Positions 14,422-30,200 of a stretch of 64,000 nucleotides of DNA are shown here, in pieces. The DNA lies in contig DASVQE010000052.1 in the NCBI GenBank assembly GCA_036389275.1, positions 33,680-97,679 on the forward strand. Direction: 5' to 3'. The translations under genes and the position numbers were made by a program. Each line of letters begins with the position of its first letter. Position 1 is the first letter of the stretch. Origin of the DNA: Thermoanaerobaculia bacterium. GTDB taxonomy: Bacteria > Acidobacteriota > Thermoanaerobaculia > Gp7-AA8. The notes below the pieces were generated by a model. That model had not been told where the DNA came from and did not search any database. It was given only the letters and a program-made list of their open reading frames with translations.

Positions 14422-15246
14422 TTGCACGATCTCTCTTCGCGCGTCTGCCATCTCTGTCTCTTCGTCGCCGTGGCGATGTTCGCCGCCGGCGCGCTCGCGG
14501 CGCCGCCGCTGTTTCCCGAGCCGCTGCATCTGACGCGCGTCGTGGAAACGCCGTTCGGCGGAGCGACCACGATCGAAGAGTTCTGCCAAGGAAACCGGAT
14601 CGCGACGGTGATCGGTATGCGCACGATCGTCGTCGACTACGACAAGCAGACGGTGACCGAGATCTCGCGCGCCGACGCAACGTACAGCGTCACCTCGTTC
14701 AGCGACGTCGCCGCGGCCACCGCGCCGTCGGCGAAGCGCAGCACGCTGGCGACGAAGAGCAGCGGCGCGAACGACGAGCTGCGCACGATCGCGACGCCGG
14801 CGGGCCGCGACCGCGGTCATTACTTTGCCGTCGAGCCGAAGGCGCACGCGCACATCCGCAAGATGGAGATCGGCGTGGACGAGCGCGTGGCCCTTTCCCG
14901 CGAAGCAGTCGAAGCGCTTCTCGGCGCATCGTTCCCGAACGCGCCGACCGACGAAGCGCAGCTCGCGCTGCGCGCTTCGGCTGAAGGCGGAAAACCGGCC
15001 GGCGACGCGCGCGCGAAAAGCGCCGGCGGAGAGTCGCGCTTCGCGCTGCCGCTCGAGCAGCGCGTGCAATACGACGCGGGCGGCGGCAAAGAGTTCGTCG
15101 TCACGAACCGGGTCACGCGCGTCGGGAACGAGCTCGCGCCGAATGCGCTCGCGGCCATTCCGCCGGGCGCGCACGCGGTCGAGTCGCATTTCCTCCGGAC
15201 CCGCCGCGAGCTCGACGAGCTCGACCATCTTCCGCCGAATCCGTAG
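14422..15246 (+). CDS. small secreted hypothetical protein (274 aa) immediately upstream of the 9232-aa gene
   Basis: Signal-peptide-like N-terminus LCLFVAVAMFAAGALAAPP. No recognisable domain. Ala- and Arg-rich C-terminal half. The stop at 15246 is 14 nt before ATG 15261, suggesting co-transcription. Confidence 0.5.
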   Translation: MHDLSSRVCHLCLFVAVAMFAAGALAAPPLFPEPLHLTRVVETPFGGATTIEEFCQGNRIATVIGMRTIVVDYDKQTVTEISRADATYSVTSFSDVAAATAPSAKRSTLATKSSGANDELRTIATPAGRDRGHYFAVEPKAHAHIRKMEIGVDERVALSREAVEALLGASFPNAPTDEAQLALRASAEGGKPAGDARAKSAGGESRFALPLEQRVQYDAGGGKEFVVTNRVTRVGNELAPNALAAIPPGAHAVESHFLRTRRELDELDHLPPNP

Positions 15247-15260
15247 TCGCAGGTGCTTCG

Positions 15261-18200
15261 ATGATCGTTACGTGGCCGGTCCGCTTCAGAAAGACACATT
15301 TGTTCCTGCTGCTCGTGCTGCTGGCGCTCTGGCCGGCGGCCGCGCGCGCGCAATCGTCGGACATCGCCACCGATGAGCTGCGCATCTCCGGCAGCGGCCT
15401 GACGCTCGACGACGTGGCGAAAGTCGCGTCGGTGAACATCCCCACGACGATCCAGACGCGCTTCGCCGGCTTGATCAACGACCAGGCGCCGGAAGTGCGC
15501 GACCTCAAGGCGGTCGGCGAGCTCACCGGCCCTTCGCTCACCACGCCGCTCCGGCTCGAAACCGAGCCGGGGCACGCCTTCCAGATCCCCGGCCTCGCGC
15601 TCGAGGGCGACTACCTCCTGCAGAACGTCCGGCTCATGCGCGGCGACACGTTCGTGCAGGCGTCGGCGAAACCGAGCGCGCTGATCAAGGTCACGACCAT
15701 CCTCGTCGCGGACGTCAAGATCACGCAGCTCACGCCCGAGCAGATCCGCGCGCGCGGCATCGTCATCGACGCCACGCACTTTGACGTCTACCAATACACG
15801 CTGACCTTCTACATCGAAGGGAAGCCGGTCGAGATCCCGTTCCCGGTGATCATCGACAAGACCAGCGGCGAGATCACGCTGCTGAGCGGCCCCGATGGAT
15901 ATGGCCTGACGAATCCGATCCCGCGCGAGCTGCCGCGGTGGGAGCCGCCGTCGATCTATGCGATCGGCTGGAGCGAAGACGGCGGCGAGGACGAACCGGA
16001 GGAGAACGAAAAGGAGCCGAATGAGGATGGCCCGACCATTCCCGCGGTGATCGTCATCCCGAACAGCGTCGGCGTGCTGCATCAGTTCTTCGTCGTATCG
16101 CTGAGCGTGCGCAACAACGCGCCGGCGGGATCGGCGATCCGCCTCTCCGACATCACGGCCACGATGCTGCCGCCGCCGGAGCTGCGCGTGGCGAAGACGC
16201 AGCCGGCGGTGCCGTTCGGAAGGCCGATCTCGCTCACCGATCCGAACACCGGCGCGACGTTCCTGATCGCGCAGGCGGAGGCGAAGGCGGAGTGGACGCT
16301 GGAAGGCCTTCGCGCCGGCACGCATGTGTTCGAGCTCGACCTCGCGGCCACGTATCAGGAGTCGCCCGCGGCTCCGGCCATTCCGATGCGCGCGCACACC
16401 CGGCACGCCATCACCGTCCACGACAACCGCTTCAACATCACCTTCGCGCATCCGGAGACGGTGCGCAAAGGGATCGACTACTCGACGTGGTCGTTCGTCA
16501 CGAACATGTCGGGAGCGCTGCAGACGCTGCATCTGCGCAGCGACCTGCACGCCTGCGGCGGCACCGGCACAGTGGGCAACGTCTGCCGCGTCGACGATGC
16601 CTTCGCGAACGTGCCGTCGTGCGAGGCCGAGCCGGGCGCGCGGCTCTGCCTCGTCGACGCGGTGAACGGCGTCATGCAGCTCGTGCTCGATCCCGGCGAG
16701 ACGCGCGGCGTCGAGTTCAAGCTGCGCTCCGGCGTGACCGGCTCGGTCTACGCGACCTCCGGCTCGTTCGACGAGCCGCTCACCGGATCGGTGCAGCTCA
16801 CCATGGGCGTGAGCGAGAGCGGAGTGCCGCTCTCGCCGGCGGTGCTGCTCATGCCGCACTACGCGCGCTATCTCGATCCGTCGTTCGTTTCCGACAACCT
16901 GCAACTGCTCGGCCTCGGCTACAGCGTGGCCACCGCTCCGATCAACGAGTACAGCGCGCGGCTGCCGCGCATCATCCGCTCGGACGTCTTCACCCGCGCG
17001 GTCGACATCTCGCGCGCGGGACAGCGCCTCTACATCGGCGAAGAGAAGCGTGAGGCGTTCACGCATCTCGCCCTCGACCTCCTCGGCAACGGCGAGCTGA
17101 ATCAGCTCTCCGAATACGACGCCCTGCGGCGGCGCGAGTTGAGCGGCTACGTGGCCGGGAAAGCGCTCGCGGCGCAGCTCTCCGCGGCGGCGCTGCCGGA
17201 CGCGGCGTCGTTCGATCGCTTCCTCTCCGACTTCGGCACCACCACCGCGCATCGCGAGTCGTATCTCGCGGCGCTGGTCCATGGCGCGGCCGCGGCGGGC
17301 GAGCGTCCGTACGCGATCCACGTGAAGAACATCGCCACCGGCGCGGCGCTCGATCTGCCAAACGAGCTGGCCACGTTCTCGCGGCGCGGCACGCGCGACA
17401 TCCCGTTCGGCGATCTCTCCAGCCTCACCAGCGCGGACAAGACGCGCACCGGCGAGCTCGCGCTGGTGGGCGCGTGGAAGGGTCCGTACGAGCTGACGGT
17501 GAAAGCGGCCGCCGGCGCGTCGTTCTCACTCGACGTGCTCCTGCCGGCGAGCGTGCCGGCGAAGAAGCGCCTGGTGCGCTTCCAGATCGACGCGATGCCG
17601 GCCGGCGACCTGACGCTCGTGGTCGATCCCGCCGCGCCGGCGCTCACGCTCGCCGGCGGCGGCCGCACGTTCACGCCGGTCAGTGATCGCGAGCTCGACC
17701 CGGCGCCGCTGCGCATCATCGGCGCGCGGCAGGACCTTCACCTCGACATCACCGGCCACAAAGTCGCGCTGCTGTTCAACCGCCCGCCGGACGAATCGCG
17801 CCTGCCGAGCGTGCGCGATCTCTTCCAGACGAAGGTGCATTTCAGCCAGGGCTCGATCGCGTACGACGGCCCGCGCCCGATCGACGCCGCCACGTTCCAG
17901 GGCGACGGCCGCACGGTCTACATCACCCATTCGCATGCGCTGCACGTCAACGCCAGCTACACCATCACCCCGAAACCGTTCCGGGATCCGCTGACCGGTC
18001 AGGACGTCTCGCTGCCTGCATTGCCGGCGGCGATGGTCAACGACATTCCGGCGGCGATCATCTACGGCCAGGTGCTGCGCGGCGACAACCATCCCGTGCC
18101 CGGCGCGCAGGTCGCGCTCTCGACGCATGGCGACCAGGACCCCGACACGCAGGGCGACGAGACCATTCAATACGACGTCGCGTCCGATCCCGACGGCGCA

Positions 18201-21200: not shown

Positions 21201-24200
21201 CGCATCCTCGTGCGGCAGGCCGGCGGCAGCGAAGTCGCCAACGCGCACGTCCGTGTCTTTTCCACGGCCGGCGCGTTCGACGCGTACACCGACGCATCCG
21301 GCGTGGCGCTCGTGCCGGGCGTGCCGCTCGGCACCTTCACCGTCACCGCCGAAACGGTCGACGGCACGTTCAGCGTGCGCACCGGTGAGCAGGAGCTCAA
21401 GAGCCAGTCGGTGACGAAAGACCTCATCGTCACCCTCGGCGCGTTCGTCACGCTGACCGGACGGGTGATCAAGGAAGACGGCAGCGGTCCGGCCGTCGGC
21501 ACGCACGTGGTCGCGTCCTTCAACACCGATCGCGTCGATCTCATCACCGACGCGGAAGGCCGCTACCGCTTCGTCGGCGTGAAGGTCGACAGCGGACTGG
21601 TGACGCAGGTCCGGATCGAGTTCGTCGGCGAGGACGACGCCACTTCCGGCGGCGTGCTGACCGACACGCTCGCCACCGGCGACGCCGGCAAGGTGAAGGA
21701 CTACGGCGACTGGCGCCTCGACGCGACGGCGCCGCGCATCCTGTCCATCGATCCGGCCGACAACGCGCAGAACGTCTCGCCGGACGCGAAGATCAACATC
21801 GTCTTCAGCGAGAAGGTCCAGCAGGGCCTCTTCGAGATCTCCACGGCCGACAACGAGGCCGTGCAGTTCACGCAGACGAAGGTCGAGCAGAACGGCAAGG
21901 AGCTCTACGCGCTCACGCCGCTGCCGCCGAAAGACAATCCGCTGCCGCTGCGCAGCAACACGCTGTATCGCGTCGTCGTCAAACATTTCGCGGACTTTTC
22001 GGGACACGTGCTGGCGGACCGCGCCTTCAGCTTCGTCACGGCCGACTACATCGCGCCGAAGGTGGTGAAGGTCGCACCGGCGGTGACGCAGCCGGTGCAG
22101 CGATCCACGACCTTCGTGGTGACATTCAACAAAGCGATCTCGCGCGCCGCGCTCGAGTCGGGCGGCACGACCATCAAGCTCTATCGCACCGCTGGTCTCG
22201 CCGCCGACGCCGCCGTGCTCGGCGAAGTGACGGGCACGTGGTCGCTCGACACGCCGGGCACGGGGCTCTCCTTCGCGCCGGCCGACTTCCTGCTGGAGAA
22301 GTCGTTCTATCGCCTCGTGCTCAACGGCGTGCGCGACACGAACAACAACGTCTCCGAGCCGCTCCGCTTCGACTACCGCTCGTTCGACAAAGACGCGCCG
22401 TTCGTGGTCATCCCGTCGCCGGTTCCCGCCGGCTATCCGCTCGTGGCGGGCGTCGGCTACACGATCCATCCGGAGCTGCACGACGGCAGCGCGGCCGGCG
22501 CGCTGGCCGACGACGTGTCGCAGGTCGACTACTTCGTCACCGTCGACGGCGTGGCCAAGCCGCCCGTCTCCTTGCGCGTCGCGCCCTTCGACTACTACTT
22601 CGTGGCCGACCCGACGCTCACCAGCGGCACGCGCCGCATCACCATGCGCGCGCAGGCGACCGACGCCTCGCTGAACCTCGGCGAGATGAGCGCCGAGGTG
22701 AGCTGGGACGTGGTGCCGAACCAGGCGCCGAAGGCGCTCGGCCTCACGCTGGTCGAGCCCGATCGCGCGTTCGCGGGAAGCGACGTGAAGCTCCTGCCGT
22801 CGTTCACCGACGAAGGGACGTTCGTCTCGCTGCAGGCGCACGCCACGGCGCAGCGGAAAGACGGCACGACGTGGAGCGGCGATGCCGCGCCGGTCGAAGC
22901 GCGCCGCGACAAAGTCGATGCGGCGTGGACCTTCAAGCCGTCGTATCTGATCGTCTCGCTGCCGCGCGACGTGCAGGACGGCGCGGTGGTGAGCGTCACG
23001 CTCACCGCGACCGATGCCGCCGGAAAAACCGCGACGCTCAATCCGCCGTTCACGTTCACCGTCACCGCCGACACGGCACGTCCGACCATCCACGCGATGT
23101 CGCCGGCGTCCGACACCGAATTCCGGCGCGACGAGAAGTACACCATTCAGGCGCTGGTGAGCGACGGCGAGAGCGGCGTCGCCGAAGTGACGCTGAAGGC
23201 GGGCGACTTCTTCTCCGTGACCATGCATCCGGGTGAGGCGGGCGTGAGTGCCGGCTCGATTCCGGGGACGCTGAAGTTCGTCTCGCCGCAGATCACCGTC
23301 GTCGCGCCGAACGTCGACACGCGCGTGCCGATCGTGGCGACGGTGAAGGACGCGAACAACAACGTCACCACGCGCACCATCGAAGTGATCTACATCGGCG
23401 TGAATGATCCGTCCGCGCCGAAGGGCTCGTGGCAGTGTCCGGTGAACCGCGCCATCTGGCCGGCCGATCAGCCGTCGTTCGCGGCCACGCTCAGCGTGCA
23501 GGCCAGCGACGACATCGCCGTCACGAGCGTGCAGTTCGTCGTCCCCGGCCTGGCCGCGCCGGTGACCGCGACCGCGTCCGGGAACGGCTTGTATCAGGCC
23601 ACCGTCACGATGACGACGCCGAACGCGGCGTCGATGACGATCAAAGCGATCGTCAAGGACTCGGTCGAGTCGCACACGCTCGAGCTCCCGATCACCATCG
23701 ACCTCGTCCCGGTCGAGCGCGTCATCGACGGGCGCGTGCAGCCGGTCACCGCCGACAACCTCGCCGACTATCAGAACAGGAGCGTGATGGTGCGCGGCGC
23801 CGGCGCGGAGCTCGCGCTGCACGTGCCGGTCACGTTCGCAAACCTGCTCGTGCTCGAAGGCGCGCGCGTCTACAGCCTGCCGACGACGACTACGCTCGAG
23901 CGGAAGCTCACCATCGGCATCACCAACGCGATGTACGTCGACTGCGCCTCGAAGGTCGATCACGACAACGGCGGCTACCTCGGCGGCTGGCAGCACGAGA
24001 ACAACAGCAGCACGCGCAACGAGAGCGCGCGCGGCCGCACCGTCGGCAACGTCGCCGCCGGTGCGACGCCGCTGTCGTCGGCGAGCCACGGCGGCCGCGG
24101 CGGCGAGCGCTATCAGGGCGGCACGTCGAACGGAACCTACGGCTCGATCTTCACTCCGGCCGATCTCGGATCGGGCGGCGCCGGCGTTGCGGACCGCGAC

Positions 24201-27200
24201 TACGAAGTGGGCGGGCCGGGCGGCGGCGCGGTGCTCATCACCGCCCCGACCAGCGGCGCCGAGCTCTCACGCATCGTGATCGCCGGCGCGGTGCACGCCG
24301 ACGCGGGCACGCCGCAGGGCGACGGCCGCAGTTACTACGTAGGCTCCGGCGGCTCCGTGCGCATCGAGGCGAAGCAGGTCTATCTCTCGCCGAGCGCGAT
24401 CGTGACGGCGAACGGCGCGGACGGCGGCAGCATCGACCAGACCGCCGGCGGCGGCGGCGGACGCATCGCCATCGCGGCGACGGACGTGCTCGCGGTCTCC
24501 GATCCGCTCGCGCAGCTCCGCGCGCGCGGCGGCCGCTCGAACGTCGGCAATGCGTCGGCGTCGAACGTCGACGGCGGCGCCGGCACGGTCTATCTGCGGC
24601 GTCCCGGCCAGTCGTTCGGTGAGCTCTTCGTCTCCGGCTACGACGAAGCGAAACCGACCACCACCCACGCGACCCTGTCGACGCCGCTCGGCTCGATCGG
24701 CCGCGGCACGGCCACCGCGCTCACCGCGAGCACGCTCACGGATTCATCGCGCGTCTTCACGGCGTCGTCCGTCGGCGAGTTCCTCTCGCTCGGCAACGAC
24801 GCCGCGAAGTTCTATCGCGTCACCGCCGTCTCCGCCGACGGCCACACGCTCACCACCGACGGCGCCGACGGCAACATGCTCAGCGCCGCCGGCACGGCCA
24901 CGCCGGCGTACTCCGGCGTGCTGCGCTTCGACAAGATCACCTTCGGTCCGCGCGCGCTCGTCGACGTGCCGGGACATCTCGCCGTCGACACCACGGTCGA
25001 CGACAAGAATGCGATGACGGTCGACGGCACCGCATCGATCTACTTTGCGACCGCGGCGCCGCCGACGGCGCAGGTGGCGGCGAGCAACACGTCGGTCGGG
25101 CGCGGCGGCGGACTGCCGCTGACGTTCAACGTCGGCTCGACGGCGGGCATCCTGCGCGTCGTGGCGCGCTGGTCGAATGGCGCCGAGGCGTTCACGTACA
25201 ACGGGCAGAACAACACGCTCATCAGCACCGGCGCGGCGCCCACCGTTCCGGCGGACATGCCGGTCGGCGCCGGCTCGCTCATCCTCACCGCGACCGATCG
25301 TGTCGGCCGCACCGCCACCGCGACGCTCGCCGTGACCGTCACCGAGAACGCGCCGCCGGTCATCGATCAGCTCTCGGTGTGGCAGTCCGCGCTCTACGCC
25401 GGCGGCATGCTCAACGTGACGCTCTCGGCGCGCGACGACTCATCGGTCGCCTCCGGCACGATCGTCGTCCGCTTCGGCACGCAGAACCCGCTGTCGTACT
25501 TTGTGTCGAACGCAGGGCGGCAGACGCTGCTCCACACGATCAACGTTGCGGTGCCGACCACGCTGGCCGTGGGTGAGGCGGTCACCATCGACGCCTCCGT
25601 CACCGACGGCACGCTCACCACGAACGCGCCGACGAAAACGATGCTCATCGCGGCGGACACCAATCCGCCGAACGTCACCATCAACTCGCCGAAAGCGAAC
25701 GAGGGCTTCGTCAAGACCTCCAACGCGGTGCTGCCGATCGCCGTCGGCGCCAGCGATGCGGAAGTGGACGTGAACACCGCCACCGCGCGCGTCGACAACG
25801 GCACGGCGTTCCCGCTCGGCAAGGCTGCCGGCGGCTTCACCGGCTCGACCGCGCTTCCGGAGCTCGGAACGGGCGGCACGTCGTCGACACACACGCTCAG
25901 CGTCACCGTCTACGACTACGCCGGCAACTTCACGACGAAGTCGCAGACGTTCGTCGTCAATCCGCTCGGCGATCCGGCGTTGCCGTACGCCACCTTCAGT
26001 TGCCCGACCGCGAACGGCGCGATGTATCCGTCGGGCGTGCGGGCGAAGCTGCGCGTGCATGCGCTCGGGACGCCGAGCAAGACCTTCGGCAACGGCGTGC
26101 AGAAAGTCGACTTCTACGTCGACGGCGCGTCGGCGCCTGCGGCCACGGCGACGACCGCGATCACGGGCGCGTCGCAGCCGGTCGAAGGCGACTACGAAGT
26201 CGAAGTGACGCTGCCCACGAAGACGCAGGAAGTGGTGATGCCGATCCGGGCGGTGGTGACGAACGTCGCCGGCCGCTCGCAGGCCTTCGATTCGTCGCTG
26301 CTGATCGTGCAGCCGCACTTCACGATCTCCACCGATACGTCCATCACTCCTTCCGTCACGACGTACGAAGACGCGGTGGTGGCGGTGGTCTCGCCGGCGA
26401 CCGTCACGATCTCCGGCGCGCACCGCTTCAAGAAGCTGCTCGTCCTCGACGGCGCGGCGGTGGTGCAGGCGCCGACGGCGTCGCCCGATCCTCCGTATCC
26501 GGCCATCGACCTGACCATCACCGACCCGCAGGGTCTGTTCGTCTCGTGCGGCGGCCGCATCGATGCGACGGGCGCCGGCTTCGCGTCGGGCGCGACGTGG
26601 CCGGGACTGACGCCGAGCCAGCTCGGCGCGGGCGGCAGCCACGGCGGCGAGGGACGTTCGAACATCGGCGCGATCGCGTCGGCGACGTACGGCTCGCCGT
26701 TCAATCCGAACGAGCCGGGCGGCACCGCGCCGGGCGGCGGCGCGGGCGGCGGCATCGTGCGCATCCGCGCGCCGAAGGTCACGGTCGACGGCTCGCTGCT
26801 CTCGAAGGGCGGCTCGCTCGCGGCAGGCGGCAGCATCCGCCTCGACGTCGACACGCTCCAGGGCGGCGGCGCCATCGCCGCCGACGGCGCGACTTCCAGC
26901 TCCTCCTCCGGCGGCGGCGGGCGCGTCGCCATTTACTACACGAGCAACATGCTCCTGCCGCGCGAGAAGATCACCGCGATTGGCGGCGGCACCAGCAGCT
27001 CGAACGCCGGTGCCAGCGGCACGGTCTACTACCGGCGCGTCGACGCGAGCGGCGCGAAAGTGAGCGACGAGCTCGAGATCAGCAGCGCGCTGGTGTTCCA
27101 CAGCGCGAAGACGACGCTGCCCGCGCTCGGCAGCGGCACCATCAACGCGGTCGCCGGTTCGAACGTCACGCTCTCCGGCGTCGCGACACCCGGCGTCGTC

Positions 27201-30200
27201 GGCGAGATGCTCGACGTCCTCGAGAGCGACGGCACGCGCAGCGCGTCGTACGAGATCGCTGCGCAGAACGGCGCGACGCTCACGCTGCGCGCGCCGGATG
27301 GTCTGCCGGCCACTCTGGCGGGCAAGCGGTATCGCGGCGCGTACGTCGTCGATGCCGTCACCAGCGGCTACGTCGGCTGGCCCGTCGTCTTCTCCGACCT
27401 CGTGCGCACGCCGCGCATCGGCGCCAGCGTTTCCAGCGACACGCCGGTGATGTTCCACGGCGGCGTCGAGACGACCGATCTGCAGATCGCGGGCTACGTG
27501 CAGGTCGACGGCACGATCCGCGGCCGCAGCGTCGTCCTCGCCGCGAATGCGCGCCTCACGCATCCGGCGACCGATACGGACAACTCGCCGATCCATCGCC
27601 TCGACATCAATCTCGACGGCTCGCTGACGGTTGCCGCGACCGCGATGATCGACGCTCGCGGCAAGGGCTTCACCGGCGTACTCAACGGCGTCGGCCGCAC
27701 GTGGCCGAACACCTTCACCGGCGGCGCGAGCCGCACCGCGCGAGCGAGCCACGGCGGCACGGGCGGATACGACGAGCGTTACAGCGACCGTGCCGGCGCG
27801 ACGTATGGATCGGCATTCCGTCCCGACACGCCGGGCGCGGCGAACGGCCGCTCGGACGGGCAGAGCTGCCAGCCGTGCACGACGGGCGGCGGCGGCGTCG
27901 TGATCATCCGCGCCGCGGACGTGCAGGTCGACGGCGCGATCAACGCCGACGGCAACGATGGCGCGGGCGGCTCGATCCAGATCGACGCGCGCAACGTCAC
28001 CGGCACCGGCAGCATCACCGCGATGGGCTACGGCAGCGGCTATCCGAGCGCCGGCGGCGGGCACATCGCGTTGTACGTGACGTCGCTCAGCGTTCCGAAC
28101 GTGTCGGCCGAGGGCGGCTACTACCAGTTCACGACGAACCCGGACCCGTGGCGCGTCGGCGCACCTGGAACGCTGCTGATCAAGTATGCGTCGAAGAGCG
28201 CGCCGCTGCTGCGCGTGACCGGACGCCGCGCCACGACGAATGCGACGCGCCTCATCGGCGTCGGGAGCATCCTCAAGGCGGACCAGGCCACCGGCAGCAG
28301 CGTCACGACGAACAACGCATCGTTCCTCGCGCCCGATCAACTGCGCGGCATTCACGCCATCCGCGGCAACGACACGTCGCTGTCGTGGCCGATCACGGCG
28401 AACGACACCAAGACCCTGCAGCTCGACGCGTCGTCGCAGGCGCTCACGATCGCGCAGGGCGATCTCTATCGCGGCCTCTACAAACTCGATCGTCTGGAGA
28501 TCGAGAACGCGCGCGTGGAAGTTCCGGACCTCGTGACGTACGCGACCTCCGACTTCCGCGCGAACAGCACGCTGCGCACGGGCAACGCGGCGCCGCCGGC
28601 CGTCGATCGCACGCGCATCACGCTCGAGCAGACCGCGAACGGCCCCGAGGTGGTCGGCAGCGCCGGAGCGGTCACGGACGACGACCAGCCGGTGCGGGTG
28701 ACGCTCAGCAACGGCGCGCGCTCGCTCTCCACCGCGGCCATGGTCGCGGCGGACGGCTCGTTCCGCGCCGCGGTCCTCGGCCTGGCCGGCGATGCGATCA
28801 CGCTCACCGCGACCGACTCCCACCTCTTCCCGATGTCGAGCGAGCCGTACGTGGTCGGCACGATCGCCACCTCGACCGCGCTGCCGTCGCGCATCAGCGC
28901 GCAGAGCCTCGTGAGCGAGGCGAACTTCGCGGCCAGGAGCATCGCCGCTGAAGGCGCGTACATGCTCGTCTCCAACCAGCGCCTCTCGACTTCATTCAGC
29001 GACGGCGACAAGACCTCGGCGAAAGTCGCGCAGCTCAGCCTCGCCAATCCGCTGCAGCCGGCGTACGTGAAGACCATCGACCCGCAACTGCGCGGCGTCG
29101 ATCAGGTGCGCATCTTCGGCGGCGTCGGCTACATCAACGCGGGCAACACGGCGTACGGCATCAACTTCCTCGATCCGCTCGCCGCGCCCGGCGGCTATTT
29201 CTACCCGGCGGCAGGCCCCGAGTCGATGCTGCGCGTGATCGACAACTACGCGTACAGCATCGGTCCGTCGACGTACATGCCGCAGCACGAGATCGGCAAC
29301 CTCGCGTATCCGCGCTACATCTACGAGGATCACGAGCACATCCCCGGCTCGGACATTCTCCCGCTCGGGAACGACTACCTCGTGCTCGTCAGCCCGTGGG
29401 TCTACTCGTACGACGACGTGAACCAGGTCGACATCCGCATCGTCAAGCGCGACGCGCACGTCGCGAAGTTCACGAAGCTCGTCATCGACGGATTCGAGCC
29501 GTATCGCGCGGCCGTGTACGGCAACTACATCTATCTCACCAGCCGCACCACCGCCGACCTGATCGTCGTCGACGCGACCGACCGCGCCGCGCCGCAGGTC
29601 GTCTATCGCACCGTCACCCTCGGCCCGACGCGCGGCCTGGCCATCTCGGGCAACCGTCTCTTCCTCGCCTCCGATCCGGGGCTGCAGGTCGTCAGCCTCG
29701 ACGATCCGCGCGCGCCGCGGGTCATTCATTCGGTGTCGACGGGATACGCGTACGACGTGGCGGTGAGCCCGCAGGCAGCGTACGTCGCCTGCGGCAGCGA
29801 GATCGTGGTCGTGCCGTACGCCAGCGCGCCGACTCTCCTCGGCGGCCTGGTGACCGTGCGCCGCAGCGCCGACGGCACCGCCACCGTCTCCGCGCCCGAC
29901 GCCAGCGTCGTCGGCAGCGGGACCATCAGCATTCAGGCGCGCAAGTACGGAGCCGTGGCCGGTACCACGACCGCCAGCAGCAGCGGATCGTTCTCCATGA
30001 CCTTCAACGCCGCCGCGGGTGATCCCGTCACCATCGTGGCCGTCGACTCCGCCGGCCGCGAATCGAGCGCGGTCGATCTCGCGGTGCCGTTCTCGCTCAC
30101 GCGAGCCTTCTTCCGCGCCGACGACACGAAGGTGAGAAACAACTTCCAGGGGCAGCATCTCGCCCTCGGCGACAACATGCTCGTCCTCGGCGGCGGAGTG

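Follow-up and report, generated by a model that had tools for sequence, protein, structure and literature searches.

What are the three glycine-rich segments that lie in the middle of an exceptionally long open reading frame of a Thermoanaerobaculia (Acidobacteriota) metagenome-assembled genome, and what might they do for the protein that carries them? The window, that is, the whole stretch of 64,000 nucleotides analysed here, holds all three segments in frame within one ORF of the ORF list (positions 15261-42959, + strand), which encodes 9,232 amino acids. The same ORF is likewise called as a single gene in the JGI 3300034173 metagenome. When the GTDB representative genomes were searched with the sequence of the window itself, none proved to be closely related.

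The giant protein and its three repeat units

The 9,232-amino-acid protein carries prealbumin-like and Ig-like domains, the three predicted β-helix units, and, after these, arrays of LVIVD β-propeller and Ig-like domains. The Pfam families matched are CarboxypepD_reg, Big_5, Big_7, Big_6, and LVIVD, accompanied by a weak choice-of-anchor B match. The N-terminus, judged by eye from the translation, appears to be a Sec-type signal peptide (15261-15350, + strand) reading MIVTWPVRFRKTHLFLLLVLLALWPAAARA, followed by QSS, with a basic n-region, a Leu-rich h-region, and an A-x-A site. No sorting signal or partner transporter was recognised in Pfam and NCBIfam scans of the protein or among the neighbour genes within the window.

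All three units are encoded on the + strand and consist of a Gly-rich core followed by a post-core all-β domain. Unit A (residues 2850-3250, positions 23808-25010) has its core at 23874-24635 and its post-core domain at 24612-25010. Unit B (residues 3712-4046, positions 26394-27398) comprises a core at 26463-27065 and a post-core domain at 27042-27398. Unit C (residues 4078-4430, positions 27492-28550) follows unit B directly in tandem, with a core at 27573-28196 and a post-core domain at 28197-28550. The three homologous cores thus span 23,874-28,196; when all six frames of the window were scanned with an HMM of the three copies, no others came up. The first-pass annotation had described modules of about 180 amino acids spaced by about 2 kb; the module starts are actually 2.6 kb and 1.1 kb apart, and the homologous unit is larger, at about 330-400 amino acids, since homology continues for roughly 110 amino acids past the Gly-rich core.

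The same annotation had proposed a precise series of shared motifs. The order of the series holds in all three copies, while its exact wording does not. SHGG is found at position 24084 (copy 1) and 27747 (copy 3), with copy 2 reading SHGGEGR and hence GR in place of GG. TYGSxFxP occurs at 24135, 26685, and 27801. GGGGR(I/V)A, at 24450 and 26910, is AGGGHIA in copy 3, and GTVY(L/Y)RR, at 24582 and 27018, is replaced there by GTLLIKY at 28167, unit C being the most divergent copy.

The relatedness of the modules, by contrast with their spacing, was confirmed. Pairwise identity among the three aligned copies is 31-35%, and Smith-Waterman scores of 196, 144, and 221 exceed the means of shuffled controls (53-64) by some 9-18 standard deviations (z = 14.1, 8.8, and 18.0). 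BLASTP with composition correction gives E-values of 4e-7, 6e-11, and 7e-20. The similarity could in principle be a compositional artefact without a real domain, the ORF being spurious or its Gly content merely reflecting high-GC DNA: the modules contain 18-21% Gly, this stretch has 67-73% GC with many long spurious ORFs in other frames and strands, and weak matches to the PGGG repeats of tau show that low-complexity matching does happen. Gly richness alone is insufficient, however, because both the z-scores over shuffles and the composition-corrected BLASTP are significant. Together with thousands of homologues at E<=1e-30 in profile searches, position-specific conservation, confident AF2 models, and homologues in DNA of 39% GC, this refutes the artefact reading, to which we assign a negligible probability.

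Predicted fold and the Ser-His positions

Each unit is built from a Gly-rich core of about 200-250 amino acids and an all-β domain of about 100 amino acids. The core contains several rungs of about 30 residues with the pattern GG-x-GG-(S/R)-I-x-(I/L)...L-x-G-x-G-x-I-x-A-(N/D)-G-G. The regular rungs are preceded by some 60 Gly-rich residues of irregular structure bearing (S/G)(H/Y)GGxGG and YG(S/D)xxxP...GSGG, and short strands resembling the start of a unit recur after the post-core all-β domain. AF2 predicts unit B with confidence, both for the core (pLDDT 84.6, pTM 0.83) and for the whole unit (pLDDT 87.5, pTM 0.90), the latter consistent with one compact body. Model confidence and the rung periodicity of about 30 residues point to the right-handed parallel β-helix class, in which three-strand rungs stack into a solenoid, as the predicted fold, in line with the earlier reading of a β-helix or β-solenoid. 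A left-handed β-helix of hexapeptide repeats was considered and rejected, as neither the [LIV]-G-x4 periodicity nor a left-handed helix was found. Foldseek comparison of the core model returned nothing at E<=0.001 from either the PDB or the viral folds of BFVD. The link to phage tail-spikes that had also been raised lacks specific support because no BFVD match was obtained at that threshold; the lone PHROG match is to an unannotated family, reached by 4 of 25 aligned members.

Conservation was counted over 993 copies, drawn from the family's 150 highest-scoring proteins. An (N/D)G ladder runs through the regular rungs: I-x-A-(N/D)-G occupies columns 112-116 of the profile and again 144-148, A-x-G-G occupies columns 179-182, and all-Gly turns are conserved at 97-100%. 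Outside Gly, conservation centres on Y70 (84%), P76 (93%), R163 (92%), and T193 (90%). We interpret the aromatic, Arg, and Thr residues among the conserved positions as probably structural rather than catalytic.

The first-pass annotation had also suggested that the Ser-His of SHGG might be a catalytic or metal-binding dyad. The pair is present in all three copies of the window, which would suit a Ser-His hydrolase or a catalytic β-helix like those of pectate lyases, glycanases, or tailspikes. Across the 993 copies, however, the Ser position (column 52) is G in 47%, S in 42%, and A in 6%, and the His position (column 53) is H in 53%, Y in 41%, and F in 3%; because both positions vary, the dyad is unsupported. 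Among these copies no polar pair is invariant, and neither a pair of conserved acidic residues nor any other group of polar residues conserved together was found. Of all loops in the module, moreover, the one bearing the motif is modelled with the lowest confidence, in a block with pLDDT 55-76. Since Pfam likewise gives no Beta_helix, Pectate_lyase, or hydrolase match, and the viral folds no significant one, we regard an enzymatic module as very improbable.

A large and unnamed sequence family

That the motif has no named family, as the first reading held, is borne out by the curated libraries. Pfam-A and NCBIfam contain no family over the module for the three copies, both halves of the protein, five multi-copy relatives, or 25 and 18 aligned members. 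PDB sequence and profile searches with the window copies and relatives returned no module match, only the low-complexity tau hits, and the post-core domain gave a non-significant match to Saf-pilin. Apart from the single PHROG, that collection offered nothing, and Pfam was uninformative on a Bdellovibrio paralogue cluster. No description of the module was found in the literature searched, nor was a solved structure or an experiment for any family member found in the PDB and literature searches.

It had been proposed that a profile be derived from the three copies and searched in metagenomes; a profile search uncovered a family of 15,354 clusters (50% identity) at E<=1e-3, with 5,451 at E<=1e-30. 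The family profile built here (A2, about 210 columns) has the ordered motifs IDxxGxG(Y/F), (S/G)(H/Y)GGxGG, YG(S/D)xxxP, GSGG, GGG-hydrophobic, GG(S/A)GGS, GGGGR(I/V)A rungs, and GxGT(I/V)(Y/F). Alignments of the three window copies both with 25 and with the 993 family copies extend over their full length, and the window copies deviate from A2 in the GR of copy 2 and, in copy 3, in His for the 92% Arg and LL for (I/V)(Y/F).

The 150 top-scoring proteins are 1,400-7,100 amino acids long and carry 5-12 tandem copies each, amounting to several hundred to about 2,500 module residues per protein. Copy spacing is bimodal, with one mode at about 260 amino acids and another at about 350, in the range of about 340-380; the window's B-to-C distance of 372 belongs to the second. 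The window copies are of this long-period subtype, in which a core is joined to a conserved all-β domain of about 100 amino acids: the HMM of the window's post-core domain matches the domain that follows the cores in P0112, P0120, P0128, P0132, P0135, and others. Within the subtype, the Ser of SHGG is invariant (18 of 18 aligned units).

Carriers are spread over numerous bacterial phyla and also include some archaeal MAGs and a single eukaryote-like contig. Unit A aligns nearly full length, at 32% identity, with a locus of a Bdellovibrionales MAG. The source lineages among the best 80 matches, a list without a control set, include Bdellovibrio, Patescibacteria, Omnitrophota, and Myxococcota. 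The names of the public records consulted are uninformative, being hypothetical or given for another domain only. The partner domains in the relatives and the host protein (Ig I-set, dockerin, CarboxypepD_reg, TSP3, G8, and RHS) are extracytoplasmic.

Likeness to known systems and probable role

Several known classes of β-helical surface protein were compared with the module. The TpsA exoprotein adhesins (EtpA of ETEC, PDB 8vba and 8cpk; HMW1, 2odl; FHA, 1rwr) possess a TPS domain and Fil_haemagg repeats that are absent here; in contrast to them, the unit here is a discrete module of about 200 amino acids with rung-specific signatures and an irregular Gly-rich segment of about 60 residues, and it occurs both in tandem and interspersed among other domains. 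Autotransporter passengers (UpaB, 6bea; pertactin; Hap; Ag43; IcsA) bear no sequence-level relation to it. Another reading would make the protein a passenger of type V secretion, TpsA/FHA-like or autotransporter, with the modules as its passenger β-helix; the observations go against it. Pfam detects neither PF05860 nor a related TPS (haemagglutination activity) domain anywhere in the 9,232 amino acids and, over both halves, no C-terminal autotransporter β-barrel, PATR, or pertactin repeats; the C-terminal part consists instead of LVIVD-propeller and Ig-like repeats. No TpsB gene (POTRA plus Omp85 barrel) is present among the neighbours within the window, the modules lie mid-protein with Ig-like domains on both sides, and the family extends to Patescibacteria, archaeal MAGs, and the eukaryote-like contig. 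To our knowledge, Patescibacteria, archaea, and eukaryotes are without type V secretion. We therefore hold such a passenger to be highly unlikely.

Pectate-lyase-like and PbH1 enzymes and tailspikes (CBA120 TSP3/TSP4, 1ee6) differ in that the module has no Beta_helix or pectate-lyase match and no conserved catalytic acids, so that neither a model match nor catalytic residues on one face place it among them. Of the curated models, only that of the AgmC N-terminal domain (NCBIfam NF047640, from the adventurous gliding motility protein of Myxococcus) gave a signal, a weak local match confined to the regular rungs. Its E-values are 0.36 and 2 for window copies and 0.0068 for the best relative, the window copies score 7-10 bits against a cut-off of 275 bits, and only 2 of 18 members match at all; the likeness is at most a distant resemblance at the level of the rungs. 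RTX/PE_PGRS calcium-binding β-rolls (GGxGxDxUx) share Gly-rich repeats, parallel β structure, and occurrence in secreted proteins. They were rejected, as the period here is about 30 rather than 9 residues, the Gly turns hold no conserved Asp, and HemolysinCabind (PF00353) is not matched.

We postulate that the segments are individual copies of a modular unit without enzymatic function, folded as a right-handed parallel β-helix. Such units would serve as stiff, elongated spacers or as adhesion elements and would keep the Ig-like and LVIVD-propeller arrays at a distance from the cell, the carrier being a giant, putatively Sec-exported cell-surface protein of this Thermoanaerobaculia bacterium. 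We consider a rigid stalk or adhesion role of non-enzymatic β-helix units in a giant surface protein probable, its surface location and stalk or adhesin function being suggested by domain content and predicted fold.

Another reading takes the modules as the business end of an adhesin, binding a glycan, a metal, or another cell's surface through a site formed by the irregular segment, the near-invariant Arg, and the post-core domain. Conservation is indeed strongest in the non-rung segment and at R163, Y70, and T193; the best-conserved motifs fall in the irregular segment, which is modelled at lower confidence and could be a binding site. The invariant Ser of the long-period subtype, the conserved all-β domain that accompanies every core, and the cell-attaching lineages in the uncontrolled list of the best 80 matches also favour it, as does the position of the giant gene between two RHS polymorphic toxin genes. 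Yet no known binding motif or family is matched, tight turns and core packing explain the conserved Gly, Pro, and aromatic residues equally well, and 5-12 near-equivalent tandem copies are more typical of structural repeats. We judge ligand binding unlikely, and slightly less likely still an extension of it, namely that module and all-β domain constitute a new class of cell-contact or ligand-recognition element with the irregular segment and Arg as binding site, shared by attaching bacteria, archaea, and at least one eukaryote, and working with the flanking RHS toxins.

The neighbours of the giant gene within the window are an RHS toxin, a LytS/LytTR pair, a DUF4386 gene, an esterase, a 274-amino-acid ORF, and a second RHS giant. 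The 274-amino-acid ORF (14422-15246, + strand; 'hypothetical protein VF824_10555') has a hydrophobic N-terminus and no Pfam match. Its stop lies 14 nt upstream of the giant gene, with which it may be co-transcribed; its belonging to the module-bearing feature is uncertain.

The fold and general role proposed for the stalk-like units, a β-helix stalk in a giant surface protein, are familiar and do not overturn current knowledge. What stands apart is the sequence family, whose 50%-identity clusters number more than 15,000 and which has neither a Pfam-A or NCBIfam name nor a PDB structure. Defining it would make sense of much sequence in giant proteins that annotation now leaves dark; a profile, two subtypes that differ in spacing, and the accessory β domain are described here. 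The cultured carriers, Bdellovibrio sp. HCB209, Bdellovibrio sp. HCB274, and Microbulbifer sp. SA54, provide an experimental handle on the family.

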